Below are positions 32,561 through 48,905 of a stretch of 64,000 nt of DNA, piece by piece. The notes under the pieces were generated by a model that was not told where the DNA came from, searched no databases, and saw only the letters and a program-made list of their open reading frames with translations. The stretch is from Bacteroidales bacterium (GTDB lineage Bacteria; Bacteroidota; Bacteroidia; Bacteroidales; JAADGE01): contig JAKISF010000003.1 in NCBI GenBank assembly GCA_021648725.1, positions 65,116-129,115 on the forward strand, read 5' to 3'. Numbering within the stretch: position 1 is the stretch's first letter; each line of letters opens with the position of its first letter. A program made the translations under genes and the position numbers.

Positions 32561-33460
32561 ATGCAAAACATACAAATAGATTGGTTTTTTTATACGATTA
32601 TATTCACGATTATATACGGCGGAGTTAACTTTATGTATAAAATTGCTGCCCATCACAACTGTTCAAGTCATAAGATTATAAAAATATCAGCTATTACAAT
32701 TTCAATACTTTCTTTAATAATCATAATTATAACAGCCAGTCCGTTTACTAATTTTAAAATGCTATTCTTTTTTGCTCTGATAAATTCATTCTTTTTCGGT
32801 ATGGGCAGTATTATCAAAATTCAATCACTAAAATATATTCCCACATCATTTGCTTTCCCCATTACAAAATTGAATGCGGTACTTCTTATTATTTATGCTT
32901 TAATTCTGTTTAATGACCGACCGACCGTACTTCAATGGGCCGGAATCGGAACTTCAATTTTTGTTCTGGCTTATATCAGTTTCAATATTAAAACTGAAAA
33001 TAAGAAAACTAAAATAAAAGACAAAAAACAACTGACAGGAATTTTATTTGCCTTGCTTGCAGCTTTTGCAACCTCAATTTCAATGCTTACAGGAAAATAT
33101 GCATCAACAGAGGTTTCTAAGATTAATTTTATATTTATTTCTTACACAATGGTTATTGTCTATACAGTCATCATTAATAAGTTTGTTATTAAAAAAGACC
33201 AAAAGAAAAAGAATTCCGGCTCAAAAAAAGTTATCTTGTTCGGAATTATTATCGGATTATTAAATTTTGCCGGATATTATTTAGTGTTAAGTGCTTTTGC
33301 AACAGGTCCTTTATCTTTAATTCAAGGCATTTCTTCAAACTCATTTATTATTCCGATTGTTCTGTCTGTCATATTCCTGAAAGAAAAATTTACATATAAA
33401 AATGCAATTGTCGTTGCTCTTTCAATCTTATCAATTATTCTGATAAAAATAGATTTTTAA
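32561..33460 (+). CDS. EamA/DMT-family transporter
   Basis: About ten TM helices in two similar halves. Confidence 0.7.
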   Translation: MQNIQIDWFFYTIIFTIIYGGVNFMYKIAAHHNCSSHKIIKISAITISILSLIIIIITASPFTNFKMLFFFALINSFFFGMGSIIKIQSLKYIPTSFAFPITKLNAVLLIIYALILFNDRPTVLQWAGIGTSIFVLAYISFNIKTENKKTKIKDKKQLTGILFALLAAFATSISMLTGKYASTEVSKINFIFISYTMVIVYTVIINKFVIKKDQKKKNSGSKKVILFGIIIGLLNFAGYYLVLSAFATGPLSLIQGISSNSFIIPIVLSVIFLKEKFTYKNAIVVALSILSIILIKIDF

Positions 33461-33541: not shown

Positions 33542-34366
33542 ATGATTATTGAAATAGGTGATTGTATTTTTGAAGGTATATATTCTTCACATTCAATATT
33601 TAATAATATTACAAATTTTATTAATGATGAAAAGAATATTGTTTCCCTGGCAGATGATGAAAAATATTTAAGCCCGAATTCAATAATAATATCAGGAGGT
33701 TCGCATAAAAATGTAACTTCAATCATTATTAACAGTGAGGAAATAATCATTGATAAAAAAAGTTTTAATAAAAAGGAATTAAAAAAATACAATGCATCAA
33801 TTGATTTTAAGAACTCAGAATTTAAAAGTATTATTAAACGGGCTGAAATAATTATTAAAGAGAATATATCCGAATTCAACCCTTTAAGTTTGGCTTTCTT
33901 GATTGAGGAAAAACTTGAACAAAATTTTGAAACACGTTTTCAAAAAGCATTTGTAAAGCATATTAAATCAGCATGGAAAGAGATAGAAAAAGGTAAAATA
34001 ATCAGCGGAGTTAAAAAAGTAAAAGGTTCAGGAATGGGTTTAACCCCTTCCGGTGACGATTTTATTACAGGTATATTATATGCCGTTATTTTGATAGGAG
34101 AAAGTAAAAATATTGACACTTCAAAAATTAGAAAAATAATATATGAGGCAGCAAGAAGCAATAATGAAATTTCGAGAAATATGATTTACCATGCTTCAAT
34201 CGGAGCATATTTCAAACAGTTCAAAGATTTGCAAATTGCATTGATAAATAATGATAAAAATATTAAAGACTATTTAATAAACTTAATTGAAATAGGAGAA
34301 ACATCCGGTTCTGATATGTTAACCGGTTTTTTTCTCAGTTTAAAATATTTAAAAAATAAAATATGA
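33542..34366 (+). CDS. ylbF: DUF2877 protein (YlbF/AllH-like)
   Basis: GSGMGLTPSGDDFITG motif. Sits directly upstream of fdrA and overlaps it with ATGA. Confidence 0.6.
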   Translation: MIIEIGDCIFEGIYSSHSIFNNITNFINDEKNIVSLADDEKYLSPNSIIISGGSHKNVTSIIINSEEIIIDKKSFNKKELKKYNASIDFKNSEFKSIIKRAEIIIKENISEFNPLSLAFLIEEKLEQNFETRFQKAFVKHIKSAWKEIEKGKIISGVKKVKGSGMGLTPSGDDFITGILYAVILIGESKNIDTSKIRKIIYEAARSNNEISRNMIYHASIGAYFKQFKDLQIALINNDKNIKDYLINLIEIGETSGSDMLTGFFLSLKYLKNKI

Positions 34367-35907
34367 TAAAAGGAATAATAAAAAAAGGAGTATATTTTGA
34401 TTCCGTAACACTAATGATTGTTTCCAAAGACTTGAATAAAATTAAAGGAGTTTCTGACTCATCAGTTGTTATGGGAACAAACGAAAACAAGTCTATTCTT
34501 AAAATGGCTGATTTATACCTAAAGATATTTAATGATGCCGACGATACAGACATGTTAATTTCAATTGATGCTGATAATGATGAAGCATTTAACAATGCAA
34601 TTAAATTTATTGAAGATGAATTAAAAGCAATTAGAAATTCATCTGACGACACTTCTGATTTTGCACCGAAAAGTTTTGAGAGTGCCTTAAAATTAATGCC
34701 CGAAGCAAATCTTTCATTAATTTCGGTTGCAGGGAAATATGCTGTTGCAGAAGCAAATAAAGCATTAGGTGCAAACATTAACGTCATGCTTTTTTCAGAT
34801 AATATTTCGGTTGAAGATGAGCTGAAGATGAAGCAAAAAGCCGTTGAAAAAGGTTTACTGATGATGGGACCCGATTGCGGAACAGCCATAATTAACGGTA
34901 TTCCGTTGGCATTTGCAAATGTTTGCAACAAAGGTAACATCGGTATTGTTGCAGCATCAGGAACAGGTTTGCAGGAAGTCAGTTCAATCATTACAAATTT
35001 GGGCGGCGGAATTTCCCAAGCAATAGGAACAGGCGGCAGAGACGTGAAAAAAGAAATCGGCGGAATCATGTTTATCGAAGCTCTTAAAGCACTCGAAAAA
35101 GATGAACAAACAAAAGTAATTACATTAATTTCAAAACCCCCGCACCCGGAAGTTCTTGATAAAATTGCTTCTGAAATTAAACAATTAAAAAAGCCTGTTG
35201 TTGCAATATTTATCGGAGCAGATGTAAAAACAATTGCTGCATCCGGAGCAATTCCTGCCGTAAATCTTGAACAAGCTGCTGTTATTTCAGTTGCTATTTC
35301 CGAAAACAAAGATTACAAAGAAGCATTAAACAAGCTGAATGCACGACAAGAAAAAAATAAAACTCTCGCAAAAGAGCTTGCAAAAAACAATAGCGGCAAA
35401 TATATCAGAGGTTTGTACAGCGGCGGAACTTTATGCGATGAAGCACAACTTCTTTTAAAAGACACACTCGGTTTTACATACAGCAATACTCCGTTAAGCG
35501 CTGATTATCAACTTTCTGACATTTGGAAAAGCAAAGAACACACAATTATTGATTTAGGTGAAGATGAATTTACAGCCGGTCGTCCGCATCCGATGATTGA
35601 TTTTTCATTACGAAACAGAAGAGTTGTAGATGAAGCAGAAGATAAGGAAACCGCTGTATTATTATTAGATGTCGTTTTAGGTTACGGCTCAAATTTAAAT
35701 CCGGAAGCAGAACTGGCACCTGCATTTGAAAAAGCAAAAAAGACAAACCCGAATTTGACAATTATTTGTTCCGTTACAGGCACAGACGAGGATCCTCAAA
35801 ATAGAGCAAAAGTGAAACAAACTCTGGAAAATACAGGAGCAATTGTTATGAATACAAATGTAGAAGCTGTGGAACTTGCGGAAAGTATAGTATCACTGTT
35901 ACAATAA
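34363..35907 (+). CDS. fdrA: FdrA (AllF-like, succinyl-CoA-synthetase-alpha-like) protein
   Basis: Long colinear similarity to E. coli FdrA as I recall it: KKG.YFDSV.LM..S, ISVAG.YA..EA..AL, NVM.FSDN, GLL.MGPDCGT, GNIG...ASGTG.QE, SKPP, GRPHPMID. Confidence 0.9.
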   Translation: MIKGIIKKGVYFDSVTLMIVSKDLNKIKGVSDSSVVMGTNENKSILKMADLYLKIFNDADDTDMLISIDADNDEAFNNAIKFIEDELKAIRNSSDDTSDFAPKSFESALKLMPEANLSLISVAGKYAVAEANKALGANINVMLFSDNISVEDELKMKQKAVEKGLLMMGPDCGTAIINGIPLAFANVCNKGNIGIVAASGTGLQEVSSIITNLGGGISQAIGTGGRDVKKEIGGIMFIEALKALEKDEQTKVITLISKPPHPEVLDKIASEIKQLKKPVVAIFIGADVKTIAASGAIPAVNLEQAAVISVAISENKDYKEALNKLNARQEKNKTLAKELAKNNSGKYIRGLYSGGTLCDEAQLLLKDTLGFTYSNTPLSADYQLSDIWKSKEHTIIDLGEDEFTAGRPHPMIDFSLRNRRVVDEAEDKETAVLLLDVVLGYGSNLNPEAELAPAFEKAKKTNPNLTIICSVTGTDEDPQNRAKVKQTLENTGAIVMNTNVEAVELAESIVSLLQ

Positions 35908-35991
35908 ATTTAAACCACATAATACACAAAGATTTTTGAAAAGTAGCAACTATGTGAACTTTGTGGTAAATAAAATAAAAATAAAGGAAAA

Positions 35992-37395
35992 ATGGCAATA
36001 AACGATATATTTAATAAAGACCTGAAAGTTATAAACACAGGCATAGAAAGTTTTAAAGAAAACATTGAGCACGCAGGAGCGAAAGCTGTCCATGTGGATT
36101 GGAAACCGCCCGTTGATATTGACCCGAAAGTTTGGGAAACGATTAATGCAAAAGAAGGTATTATTAATGCAGCGAATGAAAAAGCATTAGAAATTATCCT
36201 TAACGGAAAACCGAATTTAATCGGTATGGATTTAGCAAAAAATGTAATTCCCGGTATGAAACCGAATTTAATTTTGCATTCAGGACCACCGATTAAATGG
36301 GAAAGAATGTGCGGACCCACAAGAGGTGCAATTATCGGAGCATTAATTTATGAAGGAATGGCAAAAACACCGGAAGAAGCTGAAAAATTGGCTGCTTCCG
36401 ATAAAATAGAATATGCTCCTTGTCATGAACATGATACCGTAGGACCGATGGCAGGAATTGTATCAGCATCAATGCCGGTTTTTATAATAAAAAATGAGGA
36501 ATACGGCAACCAAGCATATTGCACTCAAAATGAAGGACTCGGCAAGGTTTTGCGTTACGGAGCTTTCAGTAAAGAAGTTATCACACGCTTAAAATGGATG
36601 GATGATGTGATGTATCCGATTTTGAAAAAGGCAATTGAAAGCCTAAAAAAAATTGATTTAAAAAACATTATCGCACAAGCATTGCACATGGGCGACGAAG
36701 TTCATAACAGAAACAGAGCAGGAACTTCATTGTTTTACAGAACAATTGCTCCGGCAATTATTAAAACTTCCGATGATAAACAAAACATGGCAGATGTGCT
36801 TGATTTCATTAACGGAAATGACCATTTCTTTTTAAATTTATCAATGCCCGCAGCAAAAGCAACTTTGGATGCTGCAATGAATATCCCGAATAGTTCGGTT
36901 GTATTGGCTTTATCCAGAAACGGAACTGATTTTGGCATCAGACTTGCCGGAACAGGCGAAAAATGGTTCACCGGGAAAGCTCCTTTACCTGATGCATTAT
37001 TTTTCCCCGGATTTACAAAAGAAGATGCCAATCCGGATATCGGCGACAGTGCAATTACTGAAACCGTAGGTTTGGGAGGTTTTGCAATAGCTGCATCACC
37101 TGCAATTGTACAATTTGTAGGTGGCTCTGCACAAGATGCAGTAAATTACACACTTGCCATGTATGAAATTTCTGTCGGAGAAAATAACATCTATCAAATC
37201 CCATATTTAAATTTCAGAGGTACACCGACAGGTATTGATGTCAGAAAAGTTATATCAAAAAACCTAACACCATTTATTGATACCGGAGTTGCACACAAAG
37301 ACCCGGGAGTCGGACAAGTTGGAGCAGGTGTTTTATCTGCACCGATTGAACCATTTAAAAATGCGATTGTCGGTTTTGCAAATAAGTTAAAATAA
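35992..37395 (+). CDS. ylbE: DUF1116 protein (YlbE/AllG-like)
   Basis: The size and the position after fdrA are typical of YlbE. The call rests mainly on gene context and general resemblance. Confidence 0.7.
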   Translation: MAINDIFNKDLKVINTGIESFKENIEHAGAKAVHVDWKPPVDIDPKVWETINAKEGIINAANEKALEIILNGKPNLIGMDLAKNVIPGMKPNLILHSGPPIKWERMCGPTRGAIIGALIYEGMAKTPEEAEKLAASDKIEYAPCHEHDTVGPMAGIVSASMPVFIIKNEEYGNQAYCTQNEGLGKVLRYGAFSKEVITRLKWMDDVMYPILKKAIESLKKIDLKNIIAQALHMGDEVHNRNRAGTSLFYRTIAPAIIKTSDDKQNMADVLDFINGNDHFFLNLSMPAAKATLDAAMNIPNSSVVLALSRNGTDFGIRLAGTGEKWFTGKAPLPDALFFPGFTKEDANPDIGDSAITETVGLGGFAIAASPAIVQFVGGSAQDAVNYTLAMYEISVGENNIYQIPYLNFRGTPTGIDVRKVISKNLTPFIDTGVAHKDPGVGQVGAGVLSAPIEPFKNAIVGFANKLK

Positions 37396-37397
37396 AA

Positions 37398-38567
37398 ATG
37401 ACTCAACAAGCCAATAACATATTCCAAGAAAAGTTAGAATTTACATTTGACAACCAAGAGTTTGTTAAACTAATTTTAAGTAAAAAAAGGAATAAGAATT
37501 CTGATTTAAAGAAAGTCACAATTAAACTTTCTAAAATTAAAGAGGATTTAAAATTATCATTCAATTATACACATAACACAAATGATAAAACTAAAAACTT
37601 TGAGATTGAAGAAGGAATTTCAAAGATTCAAGAGTTATTAGATACCGAATTTTATAATGCCGATTTATTTACAACAAAAGAAACAATTCAACTATTTACT
37701 AACAAGAAAAACAATTCAAAAATAAAAACAACAGAACCTACTTTCACAACTATACCTAATTTGAGTCATGACAAAATAAAGAAAAAAAGAATTTTATTAG
37801 AAAACAATCTTTATTTACAAGAACTCGGCATTACAACAAAAAATTTCAAGATAAAAAAAGATATGCACGACAAATATCGTCAAATCAATAAATATCTTGA
37901 AATCATTGAAAGTTTGTTGGATTCATTAAAAGAAAAAAAAGAATTAAAAATTGTTGATATGGGTTCCGGTAAAGGATATTTAACCTTTGCATTATATGAT
38001 TTTTTAAAAAATAGTTTAAATTTACAACCCAAAATTTCAGGTGTAGAATTCAGGGAGGAATTAGTTAAGAAATCTAATCAGCTTGCAGATAAAGCAGGGT
38101 TTAAGAATCTGAATTTCAAACAGGGAACCATAAAACAAACCGAAATTGGTAAAATTGACATATTAATTGCACTTCACGCTTGCGATACTGCAACAGACGA
38201 AGCAATTTATAAAGGAATTAAGTCAAATGCAGATCTAATAATTGTTGCACCTTGTTGTCAAAAACAAATACGTAAACAATTTAATGTTCAGAATGAAATG
38301 GCATCAATCGTAAAACACGGAATTTTAAAAGAACAGCAAGCAGTTATTATTACGGATGGGTTAAGAGCATTGATATTAGAAGCATTCGGTTATAAAGCCA
38401 AAGTATTTGAATTTATCTCAACCGAACACACACCGAAAAACACAATGGTAGTCGGAACAAAACATAACAATAAAATACATAAAAACGAAATATTAGAAAA
38501 AATAAATGCAATAAAAGATCTTTTCGGGATTGAATATCATCATCTTGAAAAACTGTTAAAAATATGA
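37398..38567 (+). CDS. class I SAM-dependent methyltransferase with about 170-aa N-terminal extension
   Basis: SAM motif I is IVDMGSGKGYLT, and ALHACDTATD follows. The start lies 2 nt after the ylbE stop codon. Confidence 0.7.
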   Translation: MTQQANNIFQEKLEFTFDNQEFVKLILSKKRNKNSDLKKVTIKLSKIKEDLKLSFNYTHNTNDKTKNFEIEEGISKIQELLDTEFYNADLFTTKETIQLFTNKKNNSKIKTTEPTFTTIPNLSHDKIKKKRILLENNLYLQELGITTKNFKIKKDMHDKYRQINKYLEIIESLLDSLKEKKELKIVDMGSGKGYLTFALYDFLKNSLNLQPKISGVEFREELVKKSNQLADKAGFKNLNFKQGTIKQTEIGKIDILIALHACDTATDEAIYKGIKSNADLIIVAPCCQKQIRKQFNVQNEMASIVKHGILKEQQAVIITDGLRALILEAFGYKAKVFEFISTEHTPKNTMVVGTKHNNKIHKNEILEKINAIKDLFGIEYHHLEKLLKI

Positions 38568-38650
38568 CTTTTGAACATCCGCAGGATTTCAAAACGTCAA
38601 ATTCAAAAGCATTATAACAAAAAATATTATATAATTTTAAACAAAAGAAA

Positions 38651-39469
38651 ATGAAAGCAGAAGACGTATTAAAATTTATGAGTAGTGCAAAAATCTACGA
38701 TTTAACACAAAGATTAAGTATTCACACACCACCATGGCCAAGTTATATGCCCTTGCAATTGCAATATTTCAAAAGAATTGCCGGTGCTCACATGGGACAA
38801 GGTGCTAACGGTCAGATTATTAAATCAAGCAACCATGTCGGAACACATATCGACGGTGAAATTCACTTTTTTTCAAGCGGAAAAACTATCGGCGATACAC
38901 CTCTTGATTTCTTCATGGGACAAGCCGCTGTTGCGGACATTTCTGATTTAGTTTCAGATTTCAGCCTTTACACACCGGAAATGATTATGAGTAAAGTTGA
39001 AGTTAAAAAAGGAGATATTTTGATAATCAATACAGGCTACAACAGATTCGGGTGGGATCAACCTGAAAGCGATGAGCTTCGTTATTTTGTAAATCATCCC
39101 GGACCGTCACCCGAATTTCATAAATGGGCATTGGAAATGGAAATTAAATGGATTGGTGTTGATGCCGGAAGTGCAGATCATCCGATGAATACAATTATCA
39201 GAGATTGGCATCCGAAAGCATTCGAAAAAGCAGAAGCAAAACTAATAAAAGATTATGGTAAAACTTGGGACGAAATGTTCCCTCTTGATGAGTATTATCA
39301 AGTTATGCACTTAAATTTATTCCCGAAAGGTTTAATTCATGCAGAAAACCTCGGAGGAGAGATAAACAAAGTCAGTAATAAACGTGTTTGGATCGGTTTA
39401 TTCCCCTTAAAAGGAATTGAAATGGAATCCTCAATGTGCCGTGTTATTGCTATTGACGGAGACGAATAA
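38651..39469 (+). CDS. cyclase-family metal hydrolase (kynurenine formamidase-like fold)
   Basis: HxGTHxDxxxH motif present as NHVGTHIDGEIHF, plus a downstream GVDAGSADHP. Confidence 0.8.
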   Translation: MKAEDVLKFMSSAKIYDLTQRLSIHTPPWPSYMPLQLQYFKRIAGAHMGQGANGQIIKSSNHVGTHIDGEIHFFSSGKTIGDTPLDFFMGQAAVADISDLVSDFSLYTPEMIMSKVEVKKGDILIINTGYNRFGWDQPESDELRYFVNHPGPSPEFHKWALEMEIKWIGVDAGSADHPMNTIIRDWHPKAFEKAEAKLIKDYGKTWDEMFPLDEYYQVMHLNLFPKGLIHAENLGGEINKVSNKRVWIGLFPLKGIEMESSMCRVIAIDGDE

Positions 39470-39483
39470 AAAAGCAGGCAGTA

Positions 39484-39538
39484 GGCAGTCAACAGTTTTT
39501 CGTTTACAATAAATTAAACGAGAAACTGTTAAACTGCC
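39484..39538 (+). other. long imperfect hairpin (possible intra-cluster terminator or attenuator)
   Basis: GGCAGTCAACAGTTTTTCGTT pairs with AACGAGAAACTGTTAAACTGCC around an 11-nt loop. No T-tract follows. Confidence 0.45.
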
Positions 39539-39627
39539 GACTGTGGACTAAAAATTACAGAAACGGTATTGCAGAACAAAACACTTTACAAAATATTAAA
39601 TTAGGTCATCACATAACACTATCAATC

Positions 39628-40515
39628 ATGCCTATATCACACGAATTTGAATATTTTAAACCAAAAAACATAGAGGAGGCAGTTAAACTGTTAGGCAAAA
39701 ATCCTGAAAATACAAAAATAATAGCAGGAGGAACAGATTTAACGGTACATATTAAAGAAGATGTTATTGCACCGGATATTCTTATTGACATAAAGGCAAT
39801 TCCGGAATTTAAGGATATTTCTTTTAAAAATAATATTTTGTCGCTCGGAGCAAACGTAACTTTTTCTGAAATTGAAGAAAATGAACTTATAAAAAATAAT
39901 TTCAGAGTTCTTTGGGAAGCTGCATCAACAGTTGCATCAATCGGTGTTCGTAACAGAGCAACTTTGGCGGGAAACATTTGTTCGGCGGTTCCTTCTTTGG
40001 ATTCTGCACCGGCACTATTTCTTTATGATGCTGAAATATATGTTAAAAGTGCTGAAAATAAACGAATTATTCCAATTGAAGATTGGTTTACGGAACCTAA
40101 AAAACCTTCATTGAGAAATGATGAAATTCTTACAAAAATTGTTTTAAAATTTCCTGAAACGAAATCTGCAAGTTGCTATAAAAAACTTGGGAGATATAAA
40201 GGAGAAGATTTAGCACAAGTAGGCATGGGAGTTTTAGCATTAGAAAATAAGCAATACAAAATTGCCGTTTGTGCCGTAGGACCGGTTCCGAAAACAGCTA
40301 AAAAAACAGAAGCGTTTCTGAACGGAAAAGAATTAACAGAAGAAAATATCAAGCAAGCACAAGATATACTTACAACTGAAATTTCTCCGATAACAGATAT
40401 AAGAGCAACAAAAGAATACAGAACACATATTGCAAAAGTAATGTTAGAAAGAGGATTAAAAGAAAGTGTAGCTTTACTGGAAGGTCAAAAAGTTAAATCT
40501 GATCCGATACTGTAA
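39628..40515 (+). CDS. molybdo-hydroxylase FAD-binding (medium) subunit, CoxM/XdhB-like
   Basis: The N-terminus F.YFKPKNIEEAVKLL, IIAGGTDL and ATLAGNI motifs match the FAD_binding_5 family. Confidence 0.85.
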   Translation: MPISHEFEYFKPKNIEEAVKLLGKNPENTKIIAGGTDLTVHIKEDVIAPDILIDIKAIPEFKDISFKNNILSLGANVTFSEIEENELIKNNFRVLWEAASTVASIGVRNRATLAGNICSAVPSLDSAPALFLYDAEIYVKSAENKRIIPIEDWFTEPKKPSLRNDEILTKIVLKFPETKSASCYKKLGRYKGEDLAQVGMGVLALENKQYKIAVCAVGPVPKTAKKTEAFLNGKELTEENIKQAQDILTTEISPITDIRATKEYRTHIAKVMLERGLKESVALLEGQKVKSDPIL

Positions 40516-40610
40516 ACCTTGCAGGGTCGACAGACCTGCAAGCGTTTATTTAAAAAGAAATGTTTTAAACAATTTACGCTGTGAGGTTAAAAAAACACTC
40601 ACAGGAAACA
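40515..40610 (+). repeat. two-hairpin module A1-B1 (left copy)
   Basis: Hairpin A is CTTGCAGG/CCTGCAAG (40518-40541). Hairpin B is CTGTGAG/CTCACAG (40579-40604). The module repeats at 41286-41412. Confidence 0.8.
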
Positions 40611-40613
40611 AAA

Positions 40614-41285
40614 ATGGAAATTAAGCAACCTATTACATGCGGAAATTTTTTTCATATCTATAACAGAGGTATTAACAGTTGTGTTATATTTAAGAATAAA
40701 GAAGACTTTTATCATTTTTTAAAGTTATATAAGATTTACTTTGCTTCTGTTGCAGACACTTTTGCATGGTGTTTAATGTCAAATCATTTTCATTTACTTG
40801 TGAAAATAAAAGAATATAACGAGATAGCTTGTTTAAAACCCGAAAATAAAGATTTTAAAGGTTCCAGAAAATGGGAAGTGTTTTTTCCTGACGAAAGTTA
40901 TTCTGATAAAAAATTATTAAAATTAAAAAAACCTGTACCGGAAAAACAACTTTCACATTTATTTAATTCTTATGCAAAATGGTATAATAAAAAGTATAAT
41001 CGAACAGGTAAATTATTCGAGACACGTTTTGAAAGAATTTTAATAAATAATGAAAAATATTTAAAGGATTTGATTTTTTACATCCATAATAATCCTGTTC
41101 ATCATAATGTAGTAGGAAAAATTGATGAATACAAATGGACTTCTTATATGACAATTTTATCAGATAAAAGGACAAATTTAGAAAGAGAAACAGTAATAGA
41201 TTGGTTTGAAGATATTGATAATTTTAAATATTATCATAACAGAAATAGTGAATTAAATGAAATTGAAAATTTACTTTTAGAATAG
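40614..41285 (+). CDS. RAYT-like HUH/Y1 transposase (IS200-like fold, REP-associated tyrosine transposase family)
   Basis: FFHIYNRG N-terminus, HUH motif SNHFHLLV and catalytic Tyr context YIHNNPV. The start was trimmed from the track GTG (40581, inside hairpin B) to the ATG at 40614. Confidence 0.8.
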   Translation: MEIKQPITCGNFFHIYNRGINSCVIFKNKEDFYHFLKLYKIYFASVADTFAWCLMSNHFHLLVKIKEYNEIACLKPENKDFKGSRKWEVFFPDESYSDKKLLKLKKPVPEKQLSHLFNSYAKWYNKKYNRTGKLFETRFERILINNEKYLKDLIFYIHNNPVHHNVVGKIDEYKWTSYMTILSDKRTNLERETVIDWFEDIDNFKYYHNRNSELNEIENLLLE

Positions 41286-41412
41286 AACCTTGCAGCGTCG
41301 TTAGACCTGCAAGCGTTAGCGTTTGCAAATAATAAAAACAGTTTTTAATTTTCGCTATTATCAAAATAAAATATTTACGCTGTGAGGTTCAAAGAACACT
41401 CACAGGAAAACA
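41286..41412 (+). repeat. two-hairpin module A2-B2 (right copy)
   Basis: The hairpin A block at 41286-41317 matches the left copy at 29 of 32 positions. The hairpin B block at 41374-41410 is near-identical to the left copy. The A-B spacer is longer and unrelated. Confidence 0.8.
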
Positions 41413-41421
41413 TTACAAACA

Positions 41422-41877
41422 ATGAAAAAAATATCTATAAATTTAAACGGAGAGGTTCGTTATATTTATGTAGAGCCTAATGACGTTTTACTCGACGTTT
41501 TACGAGATAAATTGGGAATTAAAAGCCCGAAATCCGGCTGTGAAAGAGGAGATTGCGGAGCATGTGCTGTATTAATCGACGGCAAAAGCGTACGTTCTTG
41601 CCTGGTTCTTGCCATTGAAGTTGACGGACAAGAAATCACAACCATTGAAGGCTTATCAAAAAACGGGTTAACACCCTTGCAAGAATCATTTATAGAGCAT
41701 AATGCTTTTCAATGCGGCTTCTGTGCTCCCGGTGTAACAATTTCCGCAACCGAATTATTGAATAAAAATCCGCAACCGAACAGAGAAGAAATTCAAGAAG
41801 CCATAGCCGGAAACTTATGCAGATGTACCGGTTACGAATCAATTATTGAGGCAATTGAAAAAATTGCAAAAAAATAA
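41422..41877 (+). CDS. molybdo-hydroxylase [2Fe-2S] (small) subunit
   Basis: Both Fe-S cluster motifs are present: C.RGDCGAC...C and QCGFC.PG...C.C.GY. Confidence 0.9.
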   Translation: MKKISINLNGEVRYIYVEPNDVLLDVLRDKLGIKSPKSGCERGDCGACAVLIDGKSVRSCLVLAIEVDGQEITTIEGLSKNGLTPLQESFIEHNAFQCGFCAPGVTISATELLNKNPQPNREEIQEAIAGNLCRCTGYESIIEAIEKIAKK

Positions 41878-41882
41878 CAGCT

Positions 41883-44240
41883 ATGAAAGAATACAAATAC
41901 ATAGGAAAACCCGAAATCCGTATAGACGGAAAAGAAAAAGTATCAGGAGCAGCAATTTATACAGACGATATTAATTTCGGACCCGATTTATTATATGCCT
42001 TTATTGTTGAAAGCCCGTATGCTCATGCAATGATAAACAGCATTGATACTTCCGAAGCCGAAAAACATCCCGAAGTTTTAGCGGTTGTAACAGGTAAAGA
42101 TTTTCCGTATAAATTCGGTCTTTATATGCAGGACAGATTTATTTTTGCACAAGATCGTGTAAGATTTATAGGCGAGCAAGTTGCCGCCGTAGTTGCCAGA
42201 AACCCGAAAGCAGCAAAAAAAGCGGCAAAATTGGTAAAGGTTGATTATACAGAAATCCCCGCTGTAATAGATCAAATGGAAGCCATAAAAGAAGGCTCCG
42301 ATTTACTGCATGAAGACCTTGAAAATTACGACCATGTCCCTTGGTTTTTTCCGAAACCGAAAACAAATATTGCCCACTGGCGAAAAATTCGTAAAGGCGA
42401 AACACAAAAAGGTTTTGATGAAGCTGATTATATCTTGGAAGACACCTATGACGTTCCCCGATATGCACATTGTGCGATTGAATACCATGCTGCAACCGGT
42501 TTATATGACAAATCAGGACGGCTGACAATTTGGGCATCATCACAATCTCCTCATACTCAAAGGCATCTGTTTGCAGAAGCACTTAAGCCGCTTGGTTTTA
42601 CTCATAAAGATGTTCGCGTTATAGCTCCTCACGTGGGCGGTGGTTTCGGTTCAAAAGCCGGAGTAACAATGGAAATTCTTGCAGCAGCAATTGCAACAAA
42701 AGTACAAGGTCATCCTGTCAGAATTATGTGGTCACGAGAGCAAGAATTTTATAACACATACCAACGTCTCGGCGTAAAAACTTTCTTAAAAATAGGTGTT
42801 AAAAAGAACGGAAGAATAACAGCATTAGACCATAAAATTTATTGGGATGCAGGTGCTTATGTTGAATACGGAGCAAATGTCGTTAATGCCGTCGGTCTTT
42901 CGGCAATCGGACCTTACAATATTCAAAATGCTTCAATCGATTCTGTTTGCGTTTACACAAACCTGCCTCCGGGCGGTGCATACAGAGGTTTCGGTTATTC
43001 CGAATTTCTTTTCGGCTTGGAATCACACATGACAAGAATTGCCAAACATCTCGGGATTGATACGATTGAAATTCGCAGAGTAAACGCCATACGTGAAGGC
43101 GATAAAACCGCATACGGTGCAAACATGAACCCCAACGGTTTGTTAAAAGCCATTGATGCCGTTGAGAAAGAAATCGAATGGCATAAAGAATATAAATCAT
43201 CCGATCCGAATAAAGTTATCGGTAAAGGTTTTTCTCTGTTGTGGAAAGCTCCGGCAATGCCGCCTAATGCATCATCATCTTGCTTTTTGAAGTTTAACGA
43301 AGATGCAAGTATAAACCTTCTCGTTTCCGGAATGGATATAGGCCAAGGTTATTTAACCGTTATGGCACAAATTGCCGCTGAAGTTCTCGGAGTTCCGCCT
43401 TCAAAAATCAGAACTGAAAACCCTGATACAGACCGTAATCCGTATGAATGGCAAACAGTGGCTTCTCACATTACTTGGGGAAGCGGAAATGCAGTAAAAA
43501 AAGCGGCCTTAAACGCTCGCGAACAAATTTTTGATTTGGTTGTCAGAACAAAACATCTGCCCAAAGATTCTCTTTATCTTGAAGATGAAAAAGTTAAGTG
43601 TACACAAAACCCTAACTTTGAACTTCCGTTAAGAGAATTTGTTATTGCCGGTATTCAAATGAGCGACGGAACTTTTAAAGGCGGGCCTATTCTCGGAAAA
43701 GGAACTTTCTTACCGGAATTTTCCACCGCAAAATCTAATCCCGAAACCGGACAAGGCGGACATCCTAATGTGCACTACACAACCGGTGCAGCGGCAATGC
43801 TCCTTGAAATTGATAAGCAAACCGGCAAAATGAAAGTATTAAAAGCCGTTGAGGCAATTGATGCAGGAAAAGCATTAAACCCTGACTTGGTTAAAGGACA
43901 AATTATAGGCGGGCTTGTACAGGGCTTAGCAACAGTACTTTATGAGGACATGAGGTATGGTGATAAAGGAAAATTGTTAAATCCTAATTTTACCGATTAC
44001 AAAATTCCGACGGCAAAAGATATTCCCGAAAAAATAGTTCCTATAATAATTGAAGTTCCGCAACCCGACGGGCCTTTCGGAGCAAGAGGTGTGGGCGAAC
44101 ACACCATGCTTCCGGCAGCACCTATGGTTGCAAATGCTGTTGCAGATGCACTGGACGTCAGAATAAAATCAATGCCGGTTACGGCGGAGAAAATTGTTTT
44201 GGCTTATTTGGAGAAGAAAAATAACAGAATGTTGAAATAG
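41883..44240 (+). CDS. molybdo-hydroxylase molybdopterin-binding (large) subunit, xanthine dehydrogenase/aldehyde oxidase family
   Basis: 785 aa. GGGFGSK is present. The C-terminal GARGVGEH retains the catalytic Glu. No CODH-type active-site loop was seen. Confidence 0.9.
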   Translation: MKEYKYIGKPEIRIDGKEKVSGAAIYTDDINFGPDLLYAFIVESPYAHAMINSIDTSEAEKHPEVLAVVTGKDFPYKFGLYMQDRFIFAQDRVRFIGEQVAAVVARNPKAAKKAAKLVKVDYTEIPAVIDQMEAIKEGSDLLHEDLENYDHVPWFFPKPKTNIAHWRKIRKGETQKGFDEADYILEDTYDVPRYAHCAIEYHAATGLYDKSGRLTIWASSQSPHTQRHLFAEALKPLGFTHKDVRVIAPHVGGGFGSKAGVTMEILAAAIATKVQGHPVRIMWSREQEFYNTYQRLGVKTFLKIGVKKNGRITALDHKIYWDAGAYVEYGANVVNAVGLSAIGPYNIQNASIDSVCVYTNLPPGGAYRGFGYSEFLFGLESHMTRIAKHLGIDTIEIRRVNAIREGDKTAYGANMNPNGLLKAIDAVEKEIEWHKEYKSSDPNKVIGKGFSLLWKAPAMPPNASSSCFLKFNEDASINLLVSGMDIGQGYLTVMAQIAAEVLGVPPSKIRTENPDTDRNPYEWQTVASHITWGSGNAVKKAALNAREQIFDLVVRTKHLPKDSLYLEDEKVKCTQNPNFELPLREFVIAGIQMSDGTFKGGPILGKGTFLPEFSTAKSNPETGQGGHPNVHYTTGAAAMLLEIDKQTGKMKVLKAVEAIDAGKALNPDLVKGQIIGGLVQGLATVLYEDMRYGDKGKLLNPNFTDYKIPTAKDIPEKIVPIIIEVPQPDGPFGARGVGEHTMLPAAPMVANAVADALDVRIKSMPVTAEKIVLAYLEKKNNRMLK

Positions 44241-47162: not shown

Positions 47163-47381
47163 TGAATAATTGCAATTATAAATATAAAAACAAACCGGGT
47201 AATGTTCGTTACCCCTGAATCTTTTTGTAGTATTCTTTAGATGCTAAGCAACTGTATCAAATATTATATATTTAGTTAGTTTGAACATTTTGCTCATATT
47301 CGGTAGTTGCTAAACACCTCAATAATCATTATTCAATAACTTGCACTGAGCTAAGTTGAAGTGCCTCTAAACAAACAAAAA

Positions 47382-48905
47382 ATGTCGTATATCATAACAG
47401 GAGCAAATTTAACCATAGAAGATGTTGTAAATGTTGCTCGAAATAATCAAAAAGTGGAATTACATCCGGATGCTTTGGAACGAATAAAAGTTTGCAGAGC
47501 AATGATTGAAAAAAAGATTGAAGCCGGCGAAATCATGTACGGTGTAAATACCGGAATAGGCGAATTTTCAGAAACTATTCTCAACGATGAACAGGTAAAA
47601 GAGTTTCAAAAGTATTTAATTTATAATCATGCAGCGGGTATCGGTGACCCTATGCCTATAGAGTATGTAAGAGGTGCAATGCTGGGAAGAATAAATGTTC
47701 ATGCACACGGTAATTCAGGTATTCGCCCTGAAATAACTCAAACTTTGGTAGAATTATTGAATAAAGGTGTAACTCCTTATGTTTGTCAAAAAGGTTCAGT
47801 TGGTGCATCGGGTGATTTGGCTCCGATGTCGCAAATTGCTTTATTGATGTTGGGCGAAGGAGAAGCTTATTATAAAGGTGAGTTAATGTCCGGAAAAGAA
47901 GCAATGGATAAAGCAGGAATACCTGTTCCGGGACTAAAAGCCAGAGACGGACTGGGAACAATTAACGGTTCAAATGTTTTAACCGCCATGAGTGCAATCT
48001 TTTTATATGATGCAAATAACTGGTTAAAACAAGCCGAAATTGCAGCAGCTATGTCGTTGGAAGCTCTTAAAGCAAATATGAAACCTTATACATCCAGGTT
48101 ACATGAAGTGAGAGGTTTTAAAGGTGCCGTAAGAAGTGCAAAAGCAATTAAAAAGTTAGTTGCAGAAGGTGACTTAGTTTTGGAAAAAGTAGCCCATAAA
48201 GTGCAAGATGCATATTCCATGCGTTCAACTCCGCAGGTTATCGGTGCAGCACACGATGCTATGGCTTATGCACGTTCACAAGTTGAAATTGAATTAAACG
48301 GAGTAGGAGATAACCCGATTTTCTTTCCGGAAGAAGATTTACAAATATCGGGTGCAAATTTCCAAGGTACGCCGGTTTCTGTTCCTATGGATATGGCAGG
48401 CATGTGTATTACAATGATTTCTGTTTTATCTGAAAGACGTATGAATCGATTAAATAATCCTGCTTTAAGTGTTGGCTTACCACCGTTTTTAACAAAAGGT
48501 GCAGGTATGTTCTCCGGTTTAATGCTGAGCCAATATACAGCAGATATGCAAATTACGGAGCAAAGAATTTTATCTGCTCCGGCAAGTATCCTTTCGATTC
48601 CGGCAGCCGCCGACCAAGAAGATTTTGTATCTATGGGAATGAATACAGCAATTAAAAATTTCCAAATATTGGATAATGCTTACGGTATTCTCGGAATTGA
48701 ATTTATGGCAGCAGCACAGGCTCTTGATTTCAGAGAATATAAATTCGGCAGAGGAGTTGCAAAAGCTAAGGAGGTTATTCGAAGATATGTTGAGTTTTTA
48801 GATATTGACAGACCTTTATATAAAGATCATACAAATATGAAAGAACTTGTAAAATCTTGTGAGATTTTGGAAGAAGTTGAAAAAGAAATCGGTTCTTTGG
48901 AATAA
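47382..48905 (+). CDS. hutH: MIO-dependent ammonia-lyase, histidine ammonia-lyase-like
   Basis: The MIO-forming triad sits in GSVGASGDLAPMS. YGVNTGIG is present. The selectivity position reads NH in LIYNHAAG. The start was trimmed from the track GTG (47361) to the ATG giving MSYIITG. Confidence 0.8.
   Translation: MSYIITGANLTIEDVVNVARNNQKVELHPDALERIKVCRAMIEKKIEAGEIMYGVNTGIGEFSETILNDEQVKEFQKYLIYNHAAGIGDPMPIEYVRGAMLGRINVHAHGNSGIRPEITQTLVELLNKGVTPYVCQKGSVGASGDLAPMSQIALLMLGEGEAYYKGELMSGKEAMDKAGIPVPGLKARDGLGTINGSNVLTAMSAIFLYDANNWLKQAEIAAAMSLEALKANMKPYTSRLHEVRGFKGAVRSAKAIKKLVAEGDLVLEKVAHKVQDAYSMRSTPQVIGAAHDAMAYARSQVEIELNGVGDNPIFFPEEDLQISGANFQGTPVSVPMDMAGMCITMISVLSERRMNRLNNPALSVGLPPFLTKGAGMFSGLMLSQYTADMQITEQRILSAPASILSIPAAADQEDFVSMGMNTAIKNFQILDNAYGILGIEFMAAAQALDFREYKFGRGVAKAKEVIRRYVEFLDIDRPLYKDHTNMKELVKSCEILEEVEKEIGSLE

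Follow-up and report, generated by a model that had tools for sequence, protein, structure and literature searches.

A widespread operon joining AllFGH-like, cyclase-family and molybdenum hydroxylase genes in a Bacteroidales bacterium, with a possible role in oxidative pyrimidine catabolism

We analysed a gene cluster in a stretch of 64,000 nucleotides from a Bacteroidales bacterium (GenBank assembly GCA_021648725.1, contig JAKISF010000003.1, positions 65,116 to 129,115 of the forward strand), which is called the window below and in whose numbering all unmarked coordinates are given. Sequence comparison indicates that seven conserved genes of this cluster, encoding AllH-, FdrA/AllF- and AllG-like subunits, a cyclase-family hydrolase and the flavin adenine dinucleotide (FAD), 2Fe-2S and molybdenum (Mo) subunits of a hydroxylase, are the core of a widespread and uncharacterised catabolic operon. 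It is probable that the encoded enzymes hydroxylate their substrate, open its ring by hydrolysis and release carbamoyl phosphate by phosphorolysis. The assignment to pyrimidines and barbiturate, with a small oxo-N-heterocycle as substrate and uracil and/or thymine as the likeliest ones, has in our judgement an even chance of being right. A little more tentatively, at just short of even chances, we propose an undescribed energy-conserving oxidative pyrimidine route. In this route, of which we infer each chemical step, the Mo enzyme would be the product of the uracil/thymine dehydrogenase gene, the cyclase-family protein would be a non-homologous barbiturase and the AllH-FdrA-AllG complex (AllHFG) would be a ureidomalonate phosphorylase.

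The operon core and its distribution

The cluster at 33542-44240 contains eight metabolic genes, all on the + strand, and a REP-like element with a transposase-like gene is placed between the genes of the FAD and 2Fe-2S subunits. Searches of each protein against Pfam and NCBIfam profiles upheld all families that an earlier note, made from the letters of this DNA, had named. The run starts with the AllH-like subunit (DUF2877; 33542..34366, 274 aa; PF11392, 84 bits), whose gene overlaps by ATGA at 34363-34366 with that of the FdrA/AllF-like subunit (34363..35907, 514 aa; NF004760, 541 bits versus a cut-off of 433). The gene of the AllG-like subunit (DUF1116; 35992..37395, 467 aa; PF06545, 332 bits) ends with a TAA stop at 37393-37395 and is followed, after 2 nt, by the ATG of a methyltransferase gene at 37398; the overlap and this spacing had both been read correctly before. 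Next come the cyclase-family hydrolase (38651..39469) and the FAD (39628..40515), 2Fe-2S (41422..41877) and Mo (41883..44240) subunits. All seven core genes are intact, and their lengths agree with those of the orthologues. A scan for sigma-70 promoters was at chance level (53 sites, with 54 expected) and terminator-like sites within the cluster were weak and inside coding sequence; neither defines transcription units.

To compare loci, contigs representing one genome per species were pattern-scanned with an alignment of three FdrA proteins, which gave at least 600 stretches, and the best 80 loci were kept. The window proteins were compared with these loci by tblastn, and neighbour families were obtained as blast clusters of crude open reading frame (ORF) calls. 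By tblastn, the window order FdrA-AllG-cyclase-FAD-FeS-Mo was found in 19 of the 80 loci, and the trio plus cyclase was linked to hydroxylase subunits in about 33. Several further loci were cut off by contig ends, and in about ten the hydroxylase genes lie upstream instead. The stricter count by ORF clustering found the full set of six genes in 18 loci, with strict co-linearity in 12. AllH orthologues take the matching position in related loci, and in most of these the cyclase gene directly follows AllG (66-75% identity within the close clade). More than ten phyla are represented among the hosts, including Ignavibacteria, Verrucomicrobiota, Elusimicrobia, Cloacimonadota, Bacillota, Chloroflexota, Spirochaetota, Thermotogota and Hadesarchaea. 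The earlier note would have given up a common function if the two halves of the cluster (33.5-38.6 and 38.6-44.2 kb) were never linked elsewhere and were transcribed separately. Since they are linked in the same order in many phyla, they form one conserved module, and this module is real.

Within the phylum of the host, FdrA was present in three of 401 sampled genomes. The other two carriers belong to other classes and show the same AllH-FdrA-AllG-cyclase-FAD-FeS-Mo order, preceded by genes of a 248-298-aa protein, a thiolase-like protein and a DUF35 OB-fold protein. A tree of the 80 best relatives of the window FdrA was calculated by a quick IQ-TREE search, with SH-aLRT values as the only supports and E. 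coli FdrA as outgroup. The window FdrA falls into a clade of 26 rows (SH-aLRT 98), in which nearly all loci with enough flanking DNA are linked to the cyclase and to the xanthine dehydrogenase (XDH)-type subunits. Linkage to the cyclase is also seen in a second clade of 23 rows, which comes mainly from Bacillota and Spirochaetota and includes one Thermotogaceae locus. The third clade (Proteobacteria, Nitrospira and one Anaerolinea metagenome-assembled genome, MAG) is linked to carbamate kinase and isochorismatase-type hydrolases. In this tree, which does not sample enterobacterial-type sequences, the window clade stands apart from the third clade and from E. coli. Four loci of the third clade (L030, L052, L057 and L081, from Anaerolinea, Alphaproteobacteria, Burkholderiales and Nitrospira) carry carbamate kinase, isochorismatase-type hydrolases, a GntR regulator and a protein of ~525 aa with no Pfam family; their clade resembles the biuret/triuret-associated allFGHK clusters of nitrifiers (PMC12625717). 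An exact-sequence look-up of the window FdrA returned no record. Its nearest relative (58%; L010, a Draconibacterium orientale MAG) is followed by pyruvate phosphate dikinase and not by AllG, and is therefore uninformative for the context.

Several other families recur beside the core in the 80 loci, namely a family III CoA-transferase (10 loci), an amidase-signature amidase (11), NCS2 permeases (12), PucR regulators (12) and carbamate kinase (14, four of which also have the cyclase). In addition, we found XdhC, MobA-like and YqeC maturation genes, a nitrilase-type hydrolase and, in three loci, a carboxyltransferase (PF01039). None of these genes is in the window. Among the cyclase loci, nine have the trio of thiolase-like, DUF35 and 248-aa proteins and ten the CoA-transferase/amidase pair. 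No locus has both, and the two sets may represent alternative downstream branches. The thiolase trio was not found in the host genome. Its 248-aa member, the first gene of the ten-gene version of the operon (L008:15055-15801, orthologues in 17 loci), has no Pfam family and is GNAT-like by ESM-Atlas (language-model) features only. The GNAT fold is used by malonyl-CoA decarboxylases, and this protein is a lead for the thiolase/DUF35 branch.

Predicted enzymes, substrate and route

The E. coli AllFGH proteins are an oxalurate phosphorylase, or oxamate carbamoyltransferase, which converts oxalurate and phosphate to carbamoyl phosphate and oxamate (PMC11326118). In the window, the CoA_binding and Ligase_CoA domains of FdrA and the AllG and AllH families are all above their cut-offs, and the three genes are adjacent or overlapping, in the order H-F-G with AllH first. 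FdrA is 42% identical to E. coli FdrA, AllG 43% to YlbE and AllH 22% to YlbF. The first ~57 residues of AllG (35992-36165) align with residues 509-539 at the C-terminal end of E. coli FdrA, which shows that the FdrA/AllG domain boundary is shifted between the lineages, here by ~45-57 residues. At locus L049 a single ORF of 1038 aa spans the FdrA-AllG region. Pfam gave only the AllG domain in it (residues 699-912), and the tblastn coordinates suggest an FdrA-like N-terminus.

The hydroxylase consists of an FAD-binding medium subunit (295 aa; PF00941, FAD_binding_5, and PF03450, CO_deh_flav_C), a 2Fe-2S small subunit (151 aa; PF00111, Fer2, and PF01799, Fer2_2) and a molybdopterin-binding large subunit (785 aa; PF01315, Ald_Xan_dh_C, PF02738, MoCoBD_1, and PF20256, MoCoBD_2). 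This three-subunit architecture of FAD, two 2Fe-2S clusters and Mo cofactor is shared with HcrABC, E. coli XdhABC and quinoline 2-oxidoreductase. As noticed before, the large subunit carries GARGVGEH with the catalytic Glu; this residue is invariant in 29 of 29 cluster-linked orthologues, and so is the Arg of YRGFG. An Ala stands at the position of the GGGFGGKE-type motif, which we take to be equivalent to the substrate-binding Glu802 of bovine XDH. The closest orthologue is from Cloacimonadota (75% identity; Cloacimonadota versions 72-75%). The large subunit is under the cut-off of every NCBIfam equivalog, with HcrA at 519 versus 995 bits and XdhA at 498 versus 780; the Hcr beta-subunit model (119 versus 405), XdhB (216 versus 310) and XdhC (182 versus 217) are likewise not reached. 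The best solved relative, the alpha subunit of 4-hydroxybenzoyl-CoA reductase (1rm6, 335 bits), is distant. The 2Fe-2S subunit has eight Cys, enough for two clusters. The FAD subunit has three scattered Cys in 295 aa. It therefore lacks the additional Cys-rich [4Fe-4S] insertion that characterises this subunit in 4-hydroxybenzoyl-CoA reductase (HcrABC). We propose that the enzyme is a putative heterocycle (uracil/thymine) hydroxylase.

The cyclase-family metal-dependent hydrolase (272 aa; PF04199, 108 bits) contains HVGTHIDGEIH, the intact HxGTHxDxxxH metal site on which the earlier note had remarked. It shares the PF04199 family and the His/Asp metal motif with the kynurenine formamidase KynB, than which it is ~60 residues longer, and with isatin hydrolase, a precedent for cyclic amide hydrolysis. 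Matches to solved kynurenine formamidase and isatin hydrolase were weak (24-45 bits), and the arylformamidase equivalog (TIGR03035) was not reached (49 bits versus a cut-off of 223). A function as ring-opening amidohydrolase is proposed. Six loci from Chloroflexota, Spirochaetota and a Myxococcales MAG (L013, L064, L065, L074, L078 and L088) carry, in place of a single cyclase-family gene, a doubled version that is either tandem or fused (ORFs of ~573 aa).

The substrate assignment was drawn from the linked permeases and amidases, which point to a pyrimidine rather than to a purine or allantoin. For 9 of the 12 NCS2 permeases, all of them in loci with cyclase and XDH-type genes, the best match is E. 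coli UraA/RutG, with about twice the bits of XanP, XanQ or UacT. The permease adjoining the large subunit in Anaerocolumna aminovalerica, for instance, is 38% identical to E. coli uraA (E 6e-57), with uraA and rutG far above xanP or uacT. The best solved relative of the core-linked amidase is malonamidase E2 (192 bits, next-best match 156), and the CoA-transferase is nearest to the dicarboxylate enzymes YfdE, Frc (formyl-CoA transferases) and SUGCT. When the whole assembly was searched by tblastn, a second operon was found on the same contig, ~76 kb upstream of the core (C25:17864-22897; L109 7865-12898). It encodes a CoA-transferase III, a PGA_cap/CapA-like protein, an amidase, a UraA/RutG-like NCS2 permease (C25:21638-22897) and a 154-aa ORF with no Pfam family. 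The CoA-transferase, amidase and permease of the host are 45-62% identical to core-linked copies in Cloacimonadota, Spirochaetota and Bacillota; for the PGA_cap gene, none of the related loci has an equivalent. The host permease scores 256 bits with UraA, 238 with RutG and 114 with UacT, and the host amidase again matches malonamidase E2 best (176 bits, next-best 148). This amidase was found in one of the 401 phylum genomes, that of the host. Pyrimidine-type uptake and malonamate/malonate-processing enzymes are in this way associated with the core, through the permeases of nine loci and of the second operon, the amidase and the CoA-transferase.

Carbamate kinase is indeed absent from the window, as the earlier note stated, and all AA_kinase matches are on other contigs. 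Its absence had been taken as a sign of a distinct pathway. That argument falls, since a bona fide carbamate kinase (367 bits versus a cut-off of 358) is encoded elsewhere in the genome, at C45:10683-11642 (L111 5684-6643). This orphan gene sits between rhomboid protease and MFS transporter genes, with holA and dnaK also near, and no arginine deiminase or ornithine carbamoyltransferase gene lies beside it. Carbamate kinase was found in 64 of the 401 phylum genomes, including all three FdrA carriers and only three sampled genomes of the host's class. This co-occurrence is no more than suggestive of a link, because kin are not independent. The host genome also encodes XdhC, for which the earlier note had advised a search, and MoaC. 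No SelD or YqeC was found above cut-off in it, which makes a selenium-dependent enzyme unlikely here.

From these assignments the following route would result. The UraA/RutG-type permease would take up the base, and the Mo hydroxylase would hydroxylate C6, with water as oxygen source, to give barbiturate or 5-methylbarbiturate. The cyclase-family metallo-hydrolase would then open the ring to ureidomalonate, an N-acylurea with one CH2 more than oxalurate, from which the AllHFG complex would form carbamoyl phosphate and malonamate with phosphate. The orphan carbamate kinase on C45 would convert carbamoyl phosphate to ATP, NH3 and CO2, and the malonamidase-like amidase and the family III CoA-transferase would lead from malonamate via malonate to malonyl-CoA. 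Release of malonamate by phosphorolysis of ureidomalonate would explain why a malonamidase-like amidase, a CoA-transferase of the dicarboxylate type and, occasionally, a carboxyltransferase are present. The earlier suggestion of ring hydroxylation, ring opening and carbamoyl transfer thus stands as a plausible scheme, and a pyrimidine is here preferred to a purine or allantoin as its substrate. Nor does the route have to be anaerobic, as had been thought, since the host encodes a haem-copper oxidase.

Insertions in the spacers and neighbouring genes

Three spacers of the operon have each taken an insertion. The methyltransferase gene, the transposase-like gene with its hairpin blocks and a long hairpin are all local insertions into intergenic spacers. 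The element between the FAD and 2Fe-2S subunit genes, in a gap of 906 nt, contains a gene resembling a repetitive extragenic palindrome (REP)-associated tyrosine transposase (RAYT; 40614..41285, + strand; NF047646, 45.8 bits, below the cut-off of 80). It has no Pfam match, and the HUH-type motifs NHFHLL and YIHNNP can be read in the DNA. At the FAD/2Fe-2S position it is absent from all related loci. A REP-like block of two hairpins is directly repeated on both sides of this gene. The left block (40516..40608) is formed by hairpin A (40516-40546) and hairpin B (40573-40608), with a DNA fold z of -5.8, and aligns with the right block (41286..41409), formed by A' (41286-41317) and B' (41374-41409). 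Unlike in typical multi-copy REP/RAYT systems, the flanking hairpins are confined to this spot: their patterns occur at these two sites only in the 3.24-Mb assembly. The only other RAYT-like gene of the genome (on C32) is 26% identical.

The spacer between the cyclase and FAD subunit genes is unusually long (158 nt, compared with tens of nucleotides in related loci). It holds a near-perfect hairpin of 67 nt (39478..39544, + strand; RNA fold -37.5 kcal/mol, z -5.7), and none of 200 shuffled sequences folded as well. No T-tract follows. This hairpin could be a remnant of a miniature inverted-repeat transposable element, an RNA-stability element or a regulatory element.

The AllG-cyclase spacer is occupied by the gene of a class I S-adenosylmethionine-dependent methyltransferase (37398..38567, + strand, 389 aa; PF13679, Methyltransf_32, 145 bits). 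A search of the PDB gave a 24-bit match to PCMT only and an Atlas search only generic Methyltransf_32 clusters, which indicates that it belongs to a large uncharacterised Methyltransf_32 family. The earlier note had counted this gene, as translationally coupled, among the parts of the pathway. In support of this, the gene is intact, co-oriented and probably co-transcribed, and it starts 2 nt after the AllG stop; the enzyme could then be a working part of a lineage-specific variant that methylates heterocycle intermediates or handles methylated ones. We consider this improbable. No match to the methyltransferase was obtained from the 80 related loci. Its homologues were found in 27 of the 401 phylum genomes; 14 of them are close (39-50% identical over most of their length, the majority 43-50%), stand alone in FdrA-less genomes of the host's class and share no synteny with the window. 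Moreover, the other two spacers also hold insertions, so that spacer insertion is a local pattern. On these comparisons the methyltransferase appears to be a lineage-specific passenger and not a pathway component, and in annotation it should be kept out of pathway drawings.

Upstream of the cluster, 82 nt before AllH and on the same strand, lies a gene for an EamA/DMT-family transporter (32561..33460, +; Pfam EamA). It was unmatched in all 80 related loci and is outside the conserved module; it may be co-transcribed with AllH. A gene for an aromatic amino acid ammonia-lyase of the histidine type (47361-48905) lies 3 kb beyond the downstream end of the cluster, with START-domain, bestrophin-like and 4HBT thioesterase genes in between. 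None of these, the ammonia-lyase included, is conserved with the module. No allantoinase or ureidoglycolate enzyme is among the 26 genes annotated at 28.8-50 kb, a region in which no family-level search for them was made.

Alternative explanations and relation to known pathways

Different chemistry could be carried out by the same set of genes. A different cyclic ureide, such as a parabanate- or hydantoin-type ring or one derived from a purine, might be opened to oxalurate, so that AllHFG would be a true oxamate carbamoyltransferase and oxamate would proceed via oxalate to oxalyl-CoA. The trio is above the AllF, AllG and AllH family cut-offs, the best solved match of the CoA-transferase is YfdE, followed by formyl-CoA:oxalate transferases, and PucR-family regulators stand at 12 loci. 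However, the permeases are of the UraA/RutG type and not of the xanthine or urate type, the amidase is nearest to malonamidase E2, and no protein like the thiamine diphosphate-dependent oxalyl-CoA decarboxylase is among the recurrent neighbour families. In addition, allantoin genes are missing from the neighbourhood, FdrA appears to belong to another clade than that of E. coli, and the gene order is different. We therefore regard an oxalurate route as rather unlikely. A route for aryl or heteroaryl carboxylates via coenzyme A (CoA) thioesters seems to us very improbable. Here FdrA, AllG and AllH would be an acyl-CoA synthetase resembling succinyl-CoA synthetase, the Mo enzyme would hydroxylate an acyl-CoA (compare furoyl-CoA dehydrogenase) or relate functionally to 4-hydroxybenzoyl-CoA reductase, the cyclase-family protein would open the ring and thiolase/DUF35 would cleave the chain. 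Such a route would suit the large subunit, whose best NCBIfam and PDB relatives are both the alpha subunit of 4-hydroxybenzoyl-CoA reductase, the CoA-binding and CoA-ligase domains of FdrA, and the thiolase-like/DUF35 or CoA-transferase genes at many loci. Yet the HcrA score is about half its cut-off, the FAD subunit has no Cys-rich insertion, and the only characterised FdrA/AllG/AllH enzyme is a carbamoyltransferase and not a CoA ligase. The uracil-type permeases, the malonamidase-like amidase and the carbamate kinase at four cyclase loci fit a ureide better, and the thiolase/DUF35 trio is missing from the host genome. To the possibility that two unrelated operons are adjacent by chance, which the RAYT insertion and the long spacers suggest to the eye by breaking up the cluster, we attach next to no probability, given the same genes in the same order in many phyla.

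A number of observations also weigh against the pyrimidine route itself. The nearest solved relative of the large subunit acts on aryl-CoA and not on a pyrimidine, and YfdE, the single best match of the CoA-transferase, uses oxalate and would fit an oxalurate/oxamate route equally well. Many loci have the thiolase-like/DUF35/GNAT-like trio instead of amidase and CoA-transferase, and our scheme gives this trio no clear role. The regulators flanking 12 loci are of the PucR type, named for purine catabolism. Carbamate kinase is lineage-typical in at least one FdrA-positive family, which makes its co-occurrence weak evidence. In the host genome the pathway would be divided among three loci, and the RAYT insertion might have a polar effect on the genes of the FeS and Mo subunits.

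Compared with published systems, the operon is best seen as a variant that combines the oxidative pyrimidine pathway with phosphorolysis of the AllFGH type, both of them known. The E. coli system AllF-AllG-AllH with the carbamate kinase AllK (PMC11326118, Kim & Kim 2024) contains the same three families. The proposed chemistry, in which phosphate splits an N-acylurea and the resulting carbamoyl phosphate goes to carbamate kinase, is shared. In E. coli the order is F-G-H-K, with allK in the operon and next to allantoin genes (allECD), whereas here it is H-F-G and carbamate kinase is unlinked, with none on the contig. Unlike in E. coli, the trio shares its operon with genes for a cyclase-family hydrolase and for a Mo hydroxylase, and the predicted substrate would be one carbon longer than oxalurate. 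From HcrABC the hydroxylase differs in the FAD subunit and in the equivalog scores described above. With the oxidative pyrimidine pathway, which consists of uracil/thymine dehydrogenase (EC 1.17.99.4), barbiturase (EC 3.5.2.1) and ureidomalonase (bioRxiv 10.1101/2025.05.19.654654, Extended Data Fig. 1), our route would share the intermediates uracil, barbiturate and ureidomalonate, and a molybdo-flavoprotein is plausible for the first step. Ring opening would be carried out by a cyclase-family protein instead of a barbiturase of the AtzD/TrzD family (PF09663), for which there were zero matches in the host genome and also zero in the control genomes. The ureido group would be removed by phosphorolysis, which conserves energy, and not by hydrolysis to urea. 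The published contexts of allFGH are allantoin catabolism of E. coli and the biuret/triuret clusters of nitrifiers (PMC11326118; PMC12625717). A literature search found no description of the present operon, in agreement with the earlier view that its gene set does not match described pathways.

Where these genes are labelled 'oxamate carbamoyltransferase' or 'xanthine dehydrogenase', the substrate implied is probably incorrect. To our knowledge, uracil/thymine dehydrogenase, the first enzyme of the oxidative pyrimidine pathway, is still without a sequence. If the proposed route is true, this long-known pathway would receive genes, and a second substrate would be known for the recently discovered AllFGH transcarbamylase family. 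An operon that is widespread among mostly uncultured anaerobes would be given a function, in pyrimidine fermentation or in nitrogen scavenging with a substrate-level gain of ATP, and the pathway would also operate in a member of the Bacteroidota that has an oxidase, there as a dispersed regulon.

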